A DNA stretch of 27,139 nucleotides, from positions 1 through 27,139 of the forward strand of contig CAVGVM010000053.1 in the NCBI GenBank assembly GCA_963632645.1. The letters run 5' to 3'. The translations under genes were made by a program, and so were the position numbers. Of the stretch, positions 10,118 through 15,343 are shown piece by piece (within the stretch, counting starts at the first letter, position 1; the number at the start of each line of letters is the position of its first letter). The notes under the pieces are model-generated. The model saw only the letters and a list, made by a program, of their open reading frames with translations. It did no database searches and was not told the origin of the DNA. The stretch is from Lachnospiraceae bacterium (GTDB taxonomy: Bacteria; Bacillota_I; Bacilli_A; RF39; UBA660).

Positions 10118-10873
10118 ATGGAAAAATTTTTAGAGATTTATTCTAAATATAGAGATTATATTTTATCGTTTTTATTATTTATTATTTTTATGGTGATTCA
10201 GGGATTATCTTTTTGGTATTTTTCTGGGGAGATTAGCTCTGTTAAGGATACTATTAAAGATAAGAATGTTGTTTCTAAGAAAAGTGTTAGTAGTGCTTCT
10301 GGTAAGTTAATTGTTGATATAAAGGGTGAGGTTAAAAGACCTGGTGTTTATTATCTTGATAATGGAAAAAGAGTAATTGATGTTGTTAAAAAGGCTGGAG
10401 GTTTTACAATAGATGCTGATAGTTCTATTAATAATCTTAGTAAGAAGATTTCTGATGAAATGGTTATTGTTATATATAGTAAGGAAGAAGTTAGAGACTT
10501 TTTGAAACTTAAAGAAAAGAATGATTCTTTGCTTGAAATGTGTAATGGTAATATTGTTAATGATTCTTGTGTTAGTGATGAGAATAGAGATACTTATTCT
10601 GGTAATGATAAGAGTAAAAGTAATAATGATAAGAGTGATAGTAGTAGTTCTAGTAGTAAGAATAGTAATGGAGATGATTCTAAGAAGCTTGTTTCTATAA
10701 ATACTGGTACTTTGGAGGAACTTATGACACTATCTGGTGTTGGGGAATCTAAGGCTAAGGCTATAATTGAGTATAGGAATAAGAAGAAGTTTGAAACTAT
10801 TGAGGAGATTAAAGAAGTTTCCGGTATAGGGGATGCTTTGTTTGAAAAGATTAAAGATAATATTACAGTGTAG
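10118..10873 (+). CDS. comEA: Competence DNA-binding protein ComEA
   Basis: N-terminal TM, SLBB domain (VDIKGEVKRPGVY...AGG), S/N-rich linker, helix-hairpin-helix (INTGTLEELMTLSGVGESKAKAIIEYR...VSGIG). Confidence 0.96.
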   Translation: MEKFLEIYSKYRDYILSFLLFIIFMVIQGLSFWYFSGEISSVKDTIKDKNVVSKKSVSSASGKLIVDIKGEVKRPGVYYLDNGKRVIDVVKKAGGFTIDADSSINNLSKKISDEMVIVIYSKEEVRDFLKLKEKNDSLLEMCNGNIVNDSCVSDENRDTYSGNDKSKSNNDKSDSSSSSSKNSNGDDSKKLVSINTGTLEELMTLSGVGESKAKAIIEYRNKKKFETIEEIKEVSGIGDALFEKIKDNITV

Positions 10874-12923
10874 ATTTATATATGTTTTTATTCTTTTTTT
10901 CGCAATTGTTTCTTATTTTATTAGTAGTAATATAGAGCATGTTAGTAAGTATGATGATTTTAATAAAGAGGAGTTTGTTCTTACTAATATTTATGAAAAG
11001 GATTATGGTTTGAAGATTGAACTTTTTGGTAAGGAGAATGTTATTGGTTTTCTTTATTATAAAAATAGTAATGATATAGATTTGTTTTTAGATAATTATG
11101 GTCTTGGTGATAGGGTTATTGTTAGTGGTGATAAGGTTTCTGTTAAGAATAATACTGTTCCTGATACTTTTAATTATAAGCAATATTTGGTTAGTAATGA
11201 GATATATAATGTTATTAAAGTTACTGATATTAGTAAGAAGGCTGATAATAATAATATATTTTATGCTGTTAAGGAGAAGTTAATCAAAAGGGGTAAGAGT
11301 TTAGATAAATCTTATCCCTATATTAGTAGTCTTATTTTTGGAAATAATAGTTATTTGGATGAGGATGTTCTTTCTTCTTATAGGGAGAACGGTATAAGTC
11401 ATTTGTTTGCTATTTCGGGACTTCATATTTCGATATTTATTGGTATTTTAGGGTATATTCTTGGGAAAATGAAATTTCCTTTGTTTCTTAAGAGTTTGAT
11501 ACTTATTGGTTTTTTGCTTTTTTATATGTTTTTGACTAATTTTGCTATGTCTGTTTTGAGAGGGGCTATTTTTACTATTTTGTTACTTATTAATAAGTTT
11601 TTTAAGATTGGTATTTCTAGTGTTAATTTGCTTTTATTGGCTCTTAGTATTATTTTGTTTATGAATCCTTTGAATCTTAATAATGTTGGACTTCAGTATT
11701 CTTTTTTGGTTACTTTGTTTTTGATTATGTTTTCTGGAATAATTAATGGTAATAAGATTAAGGTTCTTTTTATGATATCTTTTATTTCTTTTTTGGTTTC
11801 TTATCCTATAACTATTAATAATTTTAATCAGGTTAATGTTTTATCTGTTATATATAATTTGTTTTTTGTGCCTTATGTGTCTTCGATTTTGCTTCCTTTA
11901 ACTTTGGTTAGTTATGTGTTTCCTTTTCTTGATAGTGTTTTGTTCTTTTTTATTAAGATAATTGAGGTTTCATCACAGTTTTTGAACTCTGTTGATATTT
12001 TGAAGTTTAGTATGTGTAAAATGAATGTGTTAATGATAGGTATATATTTTGTCATAGTTTGTAGGTTGTTTATGGTTTGGGATAGTAAGAAATTTAGGTA
12101 TTTATGTCTTCTTTTGTTCTTTTTTGTTGTTCATTTTTTGATGCCTTTTAGGGGTGGTGATTATGTTATGTTTTTTGATGTTGGACAGGGTGATAGTGCT
12201 CTTATTAATGTTAATAAGAATGTTACTTTAATTGATACTGGTGGTATGGTTAGTTTTGATGATAGTGAATATAAATATAAGATTGCTAAGAATAAAATTA
12301 TTCCTTATCTTAAGGCTAATGGTATTAGAAAAATTGATAATATGATACTTACTCATGGAGATGCTGATCATATGAAGGAGGCTGTTTATATTGTCAATAA
12401 TTTTAAGGTTGGTAAAGTTATTTTTAATTGTGGGGAGTTTAATTCTTTGGAAAATGAATTAATTGATGTTTTAAAAAGGAGGAATATTAGTTATTCTAGT
12501 TGTGTTAATGAGGTTGTTGTTGATAAGTATAGACTTAAGTTTTTGAATACTGATATTTATGATAATGAGAATGATAATTCTAGTGTTATATATTTTAAGT
12601 ATGATGATTATAAATTTTTATTTATGGGTGATGCTGGGGTTAATCGTGAAGGTGATATTCTTAATAAATATAAGTTAGGAAAGATTGAGTTTTTGAAAGT
12701 TGGTCATCATGGTAGTAATACTAGTAGTGGTTATGAGTTTATAAGTAGTATTAGTCCTAGGTATTCGGTTATAAGTGTTGGAGAGAATAATAGGTTTGGG
12801 CATCCTAGGAATGAGGTTTTGGATGTTTTGTCTAAAAGTAAAGTGTATAGGACTGATATGGATGGTTCTGTTAAGATTTTTTTGAATAAAGATTCTTATG
12901 ATATTAGGCTTTGGAGGCCATGA
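10842..12923 (+). CDS. comEC: DNA uptake channel ComEC/Rec2
   Basis: Competence domain GISHLFAISGLH, TM block, metallo-beta-lactamase domain (DVGQGDS, LTHGDADH, FMGDAG, KVGHHGS, FGHP, RTD..G). Start is probably TTG 10842 (AGGGG upstream); ATG 10833 is the alternative. Confidence 0.96.
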   Translation: MKRLKIILQCRFIYVFILFFAIVSYFISSNIEHVSKYDDFNKEEFVLTNIYEKDYGLKIELFGKENVIGFLYYKNSNDIDLFLDNYGLGDRVIVSGDKVSVKNNTVPDTFNYKQYLVSNEIYNVIKVTDISKKADNNNIFYAVKEKLIKRGKSLDKSYPYISSLIFGNNSYLDEDVLSSYRENGISHLFAISGLHISIFIGILGYILGKMKFPLFLKSLILIGFLLFYMFLTNFAMSVLRGAIFTILLLINKFFKIGISSVNLLLLALSIILFMNPLNLNNVGLQYSFLVTLFLIMFSGIINGNKIKVLFMISFISFLVSYPITINNFNQVNVLSVIYNLFFVPYVSSILLPLTLVSYVFPFLDSVLFFFIKIIEVSSQFLNSVDILKFSMCKMNVLMIGIYFVIVCRLFMVWDSKKFRYLCLLLFFFVVHFLMPFRGGDYVMFFDVGQGDSALINVNKNVTLIDTGGMVSFDDSEYKYKIAKNKIIPYLKANGIRKIDNMILTHGDADHMKEAVYIVNNFKVGKVIFNCGEFNSLENELIDVLKRRNISYSSCVNEVVVDKYRLKFLNTDIYDNENDNSSVIYFKYDDYKFLFMGDAGVNREGDILNKYKLGKIEFLKVGHHGSNTSSGYEFISSISPRYSVISVGENNRFGHPRNEVLDVLSKSKVYRTDMDGSVKIFLNKDSYDIRLWRP

Positions 12924-12938
12924 AAAGGAGATGATAAA

Positions 12939-13473
12939 ATGACTGAAATAAAAGAATATACAGAAAAAATTTTTGAGGACATTAAACATATTGATGATAA
13001 TGGTAATGAATATTGGTTAGCTAGAGAATTACAAGAAACATTAGAATATACACAGTGGAGAAGATTTGAAAATGTAATAGATAAAGCTAAAGTAACATGT
13101 GAAAACTCAAACATTAAGATTTATGACCATTTTGCCGACATCGGCAAAATGGTTGATATAGGTTCAAATACTAAAAGAATAACTAAAGATTATAGATTAA
13201 CAAGATATGCTTGCTATTTAATTGCACAAAATGGTGATTTTAGGAAAAAAGTAATATCACTTGCTTAAACTGATGCTAAATTAAAAAGAGATAGTATTGA
13301 TAATGGGTATAAGACAAATTATGTTTATTATAAAGTGGGAAAAGAAATAAGAAATAGCATTAAAAGAAGGAGGAACAATGCCAGAGGACTTACCAATATC
13401 ATATAAAAGTTTAAAGTAATTAGAAAAAGAAGAATAAAAAATTAGAGATAGAAAAACTAGATTAATACAATAA
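12939..13473 (+). pseudogene. dinD: DNA-damage-inducible protein D (Bro-N-like) pseudogene
   Basis: N-part EYWLARELQ..LEY..WRRF..VIDKAK, DHFADIGKMV, DYRLTRYACYLIAQNGD. TAA at 13266 is followed in frame by DinD C-terminal sequence TDAKLKRD...VGKEIRNSIKR, then a frameshift near 13368 to GGTMPEDLP..KSLK, with further stops. Confidence 0.85.
13126..13153. repeat. Perfect intragenic palindrome in dinD
   Basis: ACCATTTTGCCGA-CA-TCGGCAAAATGGT (13-bp arms, 2-nt spacer). Confidence 0.9.
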
Positions 13474-13523
13474 ACATATGACAAATGATGATAAAATAAT
13501 AGCAATTATAATATTTCAGACTA

Positions 13524-13636
13524 TTTTATTTATGTGTGATGTTGGGGTTAATTGTGAAGGTGCTATTCTTAATAAATATAAGTTAGGAAAGATTGATTTT
13601 TTGAAAGTTGATCATACTAGTAGTGGTTATGACTTT
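13524..13636 (+). repeat. Decayed direct-repeat copy of the comEC segment 12616-12740
   Basis: Manual alignment gives about 7 substitutions and one 12-bp deletion relative to the comEC codons for FLFMGDAGVNREGDILNKYKLGKIEFLKVGHHGSNTSSGYEF. Confidence 0.93.
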
Positions 13637-13659
13637 TGTTCCATAGGGGGGATTTAATT

Positions 13660-14544
13660 ATGGATTATTATGATGAAATAAAAAGTGAACTTATTGGTAG
13701 TGAAGCTAATAGAAAGATTAAGAATTATTCTATTAATAAAAGTGATTTGAATGCTTATTATAATGTTGGTAAAATACTTAGTGAAGCGGGAAAACATTAT
13801 GGTGATGGGATAATAAGAGAGTATTCTAAAAAACTAACTATTGAGGTTGGTAAAGGATATGGAATATCTAATTTAAAACGAATGAGGCAATTTTATTATA
13901 TGGTTGAAAAAGGTGTTGCACTGCCACACCAATTAAGTTGGTCTCATATTTTGAAGTTATTACCTTTGACTGATGTAACTGAAATTAATTATTATATTAA
14001 TGTTACAATAGCTAATAATTATGGATATAGGGAATTAGGAAATCTAATAAAAAATGATGAATATGGTAGATTAGATATTGATACTAAGAATAAATTGGTT
14101 AATGGTGGTAATTATGATGTCATAGACTTTGTTAAAAATCCTATATTAATTAAGAATTGTTATAATTATGAAATTGTATCAGAAAAAATATTGCAAAAAT
14201 TGATTCTTGAAGATATTGCATTTTTTATGAAAGAACTTGGTTCTGGGTTTAGTTTTATAGATAATGAGTATAAAATTAAAGTTGGTGATAGATATAATTA
14301 TATAGATTTATTACTTTATAATATAAAATTTAAATGTTATGTGGTAGTAGAGTTAAAAGTAACTGAATTGAGTTATAATCATACAGGTCAAATTCAAAAT
14401 TATATGAATTATGTTGATAAAAATATAAAGAATATAGATGATAATAAAACTGTTGGTATTATAATTTGTAAAAAAAATAATAAGTATGTGATTGAATATT
14501 GTAGTGATAATCGAATAATTGCAAGAGAATATGAGTTGTTGTGA
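13660..14544 (+). CDS. YhcG/DUF1016 family PD-(D/E)XK nuclease
   Basis: N-terminal domain (YYNVGK, SNLKRMRQFY, LSWSH) and C-terminal nuclease domain (ELGSGFSFI..EY, YIDLLLYN, YVVVELK, GQIQNYMN, TVGIIIC). ATG 13660 follows a GGGGG RBS. Confidence 0.92.
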   Translation: MDYYDEIKSELIGSEANRKIKNYSINKSDLNAYYNVGKILSEAGKHYGDGIIREYSKKLTIEVGKGYGISNLKRMRQFYYMVEKGVALPHQLSWSHILKLLPLTDVTEINYYINVTIANNYGYRELGNLIKNDEYGRLDIDTKNKLVNGGNYDVIDFVKNPILIKNCYNYEIVSEKILQKLILEDIAFFMKELGSGFSFIDNEYKIKVGDRYNYIDLLLYNIKFKCYVVVELKVTELSYNHTGQIQNYMNYVDKNIKNIDDNKTVGIIICKKNNKYVIEYCSDNRIIAREYELL

Positions 14545-14782: not shown

Positions 14783-15343
14783 ATGATGAAGTGGTTTAAT
14801 AAGATTAATAGTAAGGATTATAGTTTTAATACTCTTGATAAGATTTGTCTTTATGTTTTGATATTTTTAGCAGGTTCTTTAGCAGGTTTTATTTATGAGG
14901 AGCTATTTTGTTTGATTTTTGATCATGAATTGGTTAAGAGAGGTTTTTTGTATGGGCCTTATTTACCTGTTTATGGATTTGGTGCTGTGTTAATGGTGTT
15001 TTTACTTAAAAGATTTAAGAAGAATCCTTTGGTGGTATTTTTACTTTCTATGTTGGTTACTGGAGTTTTAGAGTATTTTACGGGTTATGCTTTATGGAAT
15101 ATTTTTCATAAGACTTGGTGGGATTATACTGGTTTATTTTTAAATATTGATGGTTATGTTTGTCTTAGATCGGTTCTTACTTTTGGAGTTGGAGGTATTT
15201 TACTTATTTATATTGTAGAACCTTTGGTAAGTATGTTTGTTTCAAAGTTTGCTAAATATAAGATATATATTCTTTCTTATTGTGTTTGTTGTGTTGTTGC
15301 TTTGGATTTTATTCTTACATTAATTTTTAGAAATAAGTTGTAA
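14783..15343 (+). CDS. DUF1113/CmpB-like membrane protein (putative ABC transporter permease family)
   Basis: GFIYE, RGFLYGPYLPVYGFGA, LEYFTG, WWDYT...NIDGYVCL motifs; several TM helices; GAGGAG RBS. Confidence 0.85.
   Translation: MMKWFNKINSKDYSFNTLDKICLYVLIFLAGSLAGFIYEELFCLIFDHELVKRGFLYGPYLPVYGFGAVLMVFLLKRFKKNPLVVFLLSMLVTGVLEYFTGYALWNIFHKTWWDYTGLFLNIDGYVCLRSVLTFGVGGILLIYIVEPLVSMFVSKFAKYKIYILSYCVCCVVALDFILTLIFRNKL

Follow-up and report, generated by a model that had tools for sequence, protein, structure and literature searches.

A decayed comEC-tail duplicate in a gut bacterium, probably left by an integrase-less cassette that phage serine integrases moved

In integrons, single variable genes follow one another on the same strand, and a recombination site closes each of them. 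A comparable layout was found behind the competence gene comEC in relatives of the organism studied here, and the window (by which is meant the whole stretch of 27,139 nucleotides analysed, contig CAVGVM010000053.1 of assembly GCA_963632645.1, Lachnospiraceae bacterium) holds an intact comEC followed by a dinD pseudogene, a decayed copy of part of the comEC tail and a yhcG nuclease gene. This window is probably a decayed member of a class of integrase-less cassettes that carry a spare comEC tail, end in a phage half-site and would be moved by the serine integrases of phages inserting at one dinucleotide of comEC. Like integrons, the comEC arrays consist of same-strand single-gene cassettes closed by a site, with GNAT, NUDIX, HD and many unknown proteins among the cargo. 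Unlike integrons, they show no tyrosine integrase (intI) at the array among the proteins scanned, comEA and comEC lying upstream instead, and their sites are serine-integrase halves (attP halves), the platform being a coding gene that each unit would repair.

Serine-recombinase elements had already been described in the streptococcal comEC (celB), where Phi1207.3, Phi10394.4 and Tn1207.1 occupy a fixed dinucleotide, GA (PMC4260502). The prophages considered below are likewise serine-recombinase prophages that insert at a fixed dinucleotide within comEC, but their core is CA, and for the streptococcal prophages neither a spare tail nor a cassette stack is described in the accessible text of that paper (PMC4260502). 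Site-specific accretion and cis-mobilisation are known from the cis-mobilisable elements (CIMEs) of the ICESt1/ICESt3 family (PMC5704250). Like the CIMEs, as far as the accessible text describes them, the comEC units are passengers without integration or transfer genes, stacked at one attachment (att) site, and, on the reading proposed here, would be carried off by an adjacent element; unlike them, they would have a serine-integrase phage as helper, measure 0.5–3 kb with one variable gene, end on both sides in attB- or attR-type sites rather than in attL and attR, and each carry a 570-nt protein-coding replacement tail. For the ssrA islands of Dehalococcoides, with the serine recombinase DsiB, cis-mobilisation was proposed, and 15 of these islands are without an integration module (PMC3146451, accessible part). 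These islands, too, are arranged in tandem downstream of a conserved gene, and a copy of the 3′ end of that gene, immediately preceded by a conserved motif, delimits each island; their repeat, however, spans 20 bp of an RNA gene, and an integrase is encoded by many of them (PMC3146451), whereas the comEC units repeat 190 codons of a protein and the scanned cargo holds no recombinase. In the accessible part of a 2025 review, comEC is given only as disrupted by an island (PMC12378983), and a literature search, with most subscription journals outside its coverage, found no published description of tail-carrying comEC cassettes. The cassettes can be regarded as a variant of accretion at an att site that is apparently undescribed, serine-recombinase prophages in comEC being already known.

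Displaced tails and phage attachment sites behind comEC

The search for the comEC tail covered 60 relatives and 400 genomes of the family. The related loci belong to uncultured Bacilli/Mollicutes, e.g., CAG:472, CAG:877 and Candidatus Faecisoma, a group that we take to be RF39. Most copies begin with the His codon (CA) of the motif THGDxDH, 569 nt ahead of the comEC stop, and do so in many genera, the genomes having been picked for multiple matches. Among 29 family genomes sampled regardless of copy number, several of whose contigs stop directly after comEC, a downstream tail piece was present in six (G002, G007, G012, G018, G025 and G026) and likely in a seventh (G001). Directly ahead of each tail that starts at this codon lies a 27-nt motif, here called the arm, which is not comEC sequence and occurs in two main types; a T tract was found at most 40 nt upstream of it in 75 of 79 cases, with a hairpin stronger than in controls. 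A strict arm pattern gave matches in 61 of the 400 genomes, as against 11 matches for the reversed control, and a hand count from the listed matches put the true motif in 44 of the 400, from 35 genera, a floor, as decayed cases such as the window and its sister genome G007 escape the strict pattern. With a pattern for the arm–tail junction (attR-tail), 119 stretches of genome contigs were found; flanking DNA was taken for 80 of them, and the architecture counts given below refer to 73 distinct loci (from L229–L305), of which 72 proved real. Three chance pattern matches (L294, L345 and L350) were removed. By eye, the arm of type A junctions (L035 and others) supplies an in-frame ATG that makes the displaced tail a predicted 196-aa open reading frame (ORF), and the type B arm carries a TTGACA about 16 nt ahead of a TATGAT-like hexamer.

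The type B arm motif matches two viral contigs. On a phage contig it is the left arm of a 56-bp attP, whose 12-nt inverted repeats are symmetric about CA and which adjoins the end of a gene for a 473-aa large serine recombinase (Resolvase, Recombinase and Zn-ribbon). Six attP with core CA were recovered among relatives of that recombinase, with clear repeats of 9–12 nt in L092, L095, L097 and L098, and 25 of 81 cassette arms are letter-for-letter identical to the arm of the L092 phage. At four attL junctions (L093, L100/L131, L346 and L347) the 5′ part of comEC halts at the same CA and is followed by the right arm and the recombinase; one attL lies in the family genome G313. For either comEC half-site, the best fit to the outer attP motif, if a weak one, comes with a shift of 5 bp (0.38 and 0.39, against 0.31 and 0.35 for the next best of 10 shifts), and an outer motif 5 bp nearer the centre in attB than in attP is the geometry described for large serine integrases in the accessible part of PMC11722253. 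Because attP and attL share the CA core and the half-sites fit the shifted motif, the intact comEC is, as predicted from these alignments, the attB, and each downstream tail an attR-type junction. Strict two-arm patterns for the type A and type C attP, and an arm pattern for type C, had no match in the viral contigs. Ends of the dif/Xer, group II intron, Tn7 or oriT kind had also been considered for the units and were set aside when the arm proved to match attP.

Several further features were seen at these sites. In the L346 prophage attL, the upstream 5′ part of comEC is reduced to about aa 426–509. L095 and L098 have a 352-aa ORF about 3–4 kb before attP, presumably a candidate reverse transcriptase of the diversity-generating type, to judge from its N-terminal sequence. 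A second fixed junction, with core GT and a conserved arm of its own, lies 146 nt before the comEC stop in L058 (G296), L066, L067, L069, L070, L237, L245, L282 and L295; L058 has five such units in tandem, the arm resembles right arms beside related recombinases that occupy other genes (L101, L102 and L104), and no matching phage site was found in the viral contigs.

Where DNA upstream of the arm is present, a unit starts with a tail, mostly followed by yhcG or dinD, and then come a single variable gene, a terminator and the arm. The left end is the intact comEC or another arm–tail junction, no attL having been found at any cassette. The initial annotation had proposed to test whether cargo varies and alternates with tails; it does so in relatives, the units recurring with changing cargo and with up to six tails per array. 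yhcG is the first gene after the intact comEC in 37 of 79 loci examined, and yhcG or dinD lead 65 of the 79. Sorting the 73 arm-adjacent genes by family gave 49 families. The + strand carries 70 of the genes, and 68 of these end 18–76 nt before the arm. Where the cargo has Pfam names these are GNAT, NUDIX, HD, Fic, peptidases and hydrolases, most of it being without a family, and no recombinase family appeared among 94 slot and cargo proteins (49 and 45 in two scans, the second covering 45 of the 73 arm-adjacent genes and the first some of the other 28). In the 72 real loci, no phage genes stand before the arm; a script flagged 43 loci as having the long comEC upstream. Two simpler views of the cassettes were rejected. 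They are not plain prophage right ends, as the cargo is unlike phage loci and no lysin family occurs in the scanned cargo, and the terminators are not genome-wide repeats that load cargo, the commonest terminator family being absent from the window's own genome. Three individual loci depart from the usual build by a dinD fused in frame to a NUDIX domain as sole cargo (L244, L299 and L305; 439 aa in L244 and L305), another (L064, G346) has a deletion that fuses comEC to the C-terminus of dinD, the fused unit being repeated at 100% identity, and in L043 (G032) several tandem dinD fragments follow comEC, with no tail copy detected.

The unit boundaries were followed in 20 pairs of loci whose last cargo genes are at least 95% identical. 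In these pairs, identity is 82–100% just before the core and falls to 84% or less over the next 50 nt in 17 of the 20. One unit of 1,854 nt, 99.6% identical from core to core, directly follows comEC in L235 and takes second place in the array of L268; the left ends of other shared units are graded and variable. The last copy follows the third-position A/T bias of its host (rho 0.62, n = 28), unlike the 3′ half of the working tail (rho −0.14), and the identities of the 5′ and 3′ parts of comEC, which the initial annotation had proposed to compare, are decoupled (rho 0.06 over 1,100 pairs). In 24 of 50 loci, one tract is nearly identical between the working tail and a copy; 18 of these tracts begin within 15 nt of the core and six inside the tail, and in the control, 892 between-genome pairs, one of 45 such tracts begins at the core. 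On our reading of these data, site-specific exchange at the comEC of the host itself produces the right end, and the left end arises at the core or through a homologous crossover whose position within the tail varies. The earlier proposal of recombination within the conserved metallo-beta-lactamase (MBL) tail is not supported for the right ends, where the identity of shared units drops at the core, and probably holds for many left ends, as a second step. Its integrase-free reading of the units does not hold, in that each right end consists of the phage-derived half of an attachment site for serine integrases, with a fixed dinucleotide as the point of joining, and its suggestion that they are fed by transformation found no support.

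The proposed cycle would start with a phage that integrates at comEC ahead of a resident cassette. On excision at the far attR, the phage would take the cassette along, and both would then integrate at the comEC of the next host. Excision at the near attR, or a homologous crossover of an intact comEC with the cassette tail, could subsequently remove the phage part. This would restore comEC as a whole and displace the host's old tail downstream behind the arm, where it would decay. The shuttle step, by analogy a cis-mobilisation, is one that we infer, since no phage carrying a cassette was found. Taken further, and only tentatively, the system might be an integron-like form of gene capture, with comEC as the platform, phage serine integrases as the enzyme and a cassette tail that repairs the gene and regenerates the site, so that phages which destroy competence would deliver accessory genes across genera.

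The window and its decayed tail

The window was compared with this scheme feature by feature, with the following assignments.

10118..10873, + strand: comEA (SLBB and HhH; Pfam), upstream operon partner of comEC
10833..12923, + strand: comEC, intact, 696 aa, with a working tail (12354–12923) of the host's own type
12327..12382, + strand: attB-type site, core CA at 12354–12355 (His codon of THGDADH), about 27 nt per side; position from four attL junctions and from downstream-tail starts in relatives, function putative
12922..12938, + strand: left junction, comEC stop and ribosome-binding site common to comEC and the incoming dinD unit
12939..13434, + strand: dinD pseudogene (Pfam DinD/Bro-N fragment at 12939–13268)
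13435..13523, + strand: A-rich spacer, no att arm detectable
13524..13636, + strand: decayed copy of comEC 12616–12740 (about aa 596–636)
13637..13659, + strand: probable comEC 3′-end remnant (CCA-TAG) and 13-nt spacer to yhcG, by comparison with gene ends in 79 loci
13660..14544, + strand: yhcG / DUF1016 PD-(D/E)XK nuclease gene, intact, 294 aa (DUF1016_N and YhcG_C; Pfam)
14783..15343, + strand: CmpB-family membrane protein gene, first conserved host gene past the variable slot (Pfam)

The order comEC, dinD pseudogene, comEC copy and yhcG, first noticed by the initial annotation, was borne out by Pfam and ORF checks, as was its view that comEC is intact with a duplicated tail, the 696-aa ORF scoring over the ComEC_Rec2 cut-off. 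In a BLASTN search of the own genome (909 kb), the copy aligned with comEC over 125 columns with seven mismatches and one 12-nt gap (E 8e-36), in agreement with the earlier estimate, and no further comEC match longer than 53 nt was found. The gap does remove HGSN from the HHGS motif as claimed, the gene reading V-G-H-H-G-S-N-T and the copy V-D-H-T, and all seven substitutions are non-synonymous. Relative to the comEC stop the copy starts at −307, not at −569. The weaker similarity that had been thought to extend upstream to about 13476 is at chance level (shuffle p = 0.27), the tail profile aligning from 13516 only. Directly after the copy, 13637–13646 resembles the final comEC bases (CCA-TAG) and lies 13 nt ahead of the yhcG start, the spacing also seen after the intact comEC in relatives; because this end resembles the true comEC ends of relatives, the copy may be read as an internally deleted old comEC tail that is still joined to its yhcG.

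The dinD pseudogene, compared with full dinD, has lost about 300 nt internally and carries a stop at 13266–13268 and a 2-nt deletion; it has 83–84% nucleotide identity to cassette dinD genes at the loci of relatives. The claim that both cargo genes are unusually A-rich stood clearly for dinD, with a third-position A of 0.45 against 0.12–0.19 in flanking + strand genes, and was weaker for yhcG (0.33), which equals dnaK (0.34). No comEC similarity and no second dinD were detected in the spacer, and a search for it in 16 genomes of the genus gave short AT-rich matches only. A remnant arm at 13460–13495, proposed by eye, was ruled out by the position matrix, and a second dinD fragment at 13495–13530, proposed from two short BLAST matches, was dropped (profile E 0.12, shuffle p 0.53). 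The reported absence of an integrase from the window was confirmed, with none among 13 ORFs scanned with Pfam and the remaining ORFs assessed by eye; the own genome, 85% complete, contains no close relative of the comEC-targeting integrase. It does contain a Ccr-like large serine recombinase (L099, G000:C32:3-1196), 24% identical to the comEC-targeting enzyme. The cmpB-family gene has the same position in 10 genus-level relatives (cluster c3).

Contigs of a relative about 95% identical (four runs) track the window's comEC as far as 12930, beyond which their sequence differs, showing the slot after comEC to be polymorphic; a contig of another organism, with a different tail end, joins at 12922. 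The window's working tail is closer to the displaced copy of the genus relative G012 (75.8%) than to the working tail of G012 (69.6%), which argues that it is of host type. The sister genome G007, 95.2% identical over 9.9 kb from 14105, has a terminator, an arm and a host-type tail (94% identical to 12354–12524) before the same yhcG–cmpB stretch, with a different deletion. It is therefore likely, on these comparisons, that the window represents a decayed member of the cassettes whose arm has been lost, G007 keeping its own at the matching place. The left crossover of the window's unit would have fallen at the end of the gene (12922–12930), so that both tails are of host type, and subsequent deletions would have taken away the arm together with most of the old tail, including its first 262 nt. 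The window is thus a poor specimen of the system, its att arm being gone.

Weighing the explanations

Several results count against movement by phage integrases as the origin of the cassettes. None of the six attP loci has a comEC tail in the 2–10 kb read, the best 80 of 174 viral tail matches are at most 49% identical, the attR-tail pattern has no match in the viral contigs, and the sole lysogen, G313, has a single tail after its prophage. A close integrase was seen in one of 400 family genomes. Three of the 20 locus pairs continue past the core, and the pairs overlap and are not independent. The cargo genes do not match phage loci, which leaves the entry of new genes into the cassettes unexplained. 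The window itself has no phage arm; the best arm-matrix score in 12940–13660 is −27, and 2,029 genome positions score as high, so that its membership rests on G007 and on context. The copy also matches the window's gene, not that of the close relative, at four of five diagnostic bases, from which it follows that it is younger than the split from that relative or was overwritten after it; a recent origin of this kind also fits a local event.

If the cassettes excised as small circles, inserted at comEC by a phage integrase in trans without ever being part of a phage genome, the same att evidence would be expected, as would a unit with cores at both ends; cassettes, moreover, outnumber close integrases about 40 to 1 in the assemblies, and no cassette-bearing phage was found. 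The site on such a circle would, however, be of attR type, and attR does not form a canonical pair with attB, product sites of serine integrases being described as locked without a directionality factor (PMC11722253, accessible part). As it also offers no evident route of transfer between genera, this explanation is considered unlikely. The model of the initial annotation, in which the arms would be fossils and the units would have no means of spread other than transformation and homologous recombination among the conserved tails of comEC, draws on the graded and variable left ends, on the six of 24 identity tracts that start within the tail, and on homology that is present in every competent recipient. 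It is largely refuted for the right ends, which lie at the core in 17 of 20 pairs, and it has to contend with identity tracts anchored at the core and with the 25 of 81 arms identical to a present-day phage arm; as a full account it is quite unlikely.

A further explanation concerns the window alone: dinD would have inserted once, and microhomology would have duplicated a short piece of comEC locally, with no part played by the att system. This would explain the missing arm, the start of the copy at −307 instead of −569, the lack of synonymous differences from the gene, and would sit well with the six other near direct repeats of at least 100 nt in the genome. Yet the same two cargo genes lead 65 of the 79 loci, G007 has an arm and tail at the matching place, and L239 and L276 likewise have shortened tails, beginning near aa 598, behind an arm that is intact, so that this local explanation seems rather improbable. 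No RNA run was listed among the public runs that contain the locus, and no public run covers the whole of it (the best share of words was 0.24), which would leave room for a misassembly, but the copy has its own substitutions and deletion, it lies inside a 27-kb contig and the arrangement of G007 matches, making an artefact extremely improbable. The derivation of the window from a cassette moved by phage serine integrases remains the probable one, with homologous recombination in the tail probably making many of the left ends.

Meaning for the family

Elements that insert into competence genes are regarded as parasites by which transformation is switched off; the phage site described here also carries small cassettes, and these keep comEC whole. 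The attP, attB, attL and attR sites and the integrase family supply defined substrates with which cis-mobilisation by serine integrases may be tested. As a warning, the comEC trees in this group are chimeric. A large family of uncultured gut bacteria has the system in a tenth or more of its members; there, the cassettes would swap a third of the ComEC protein between genera and stack variable genes behind comEC.

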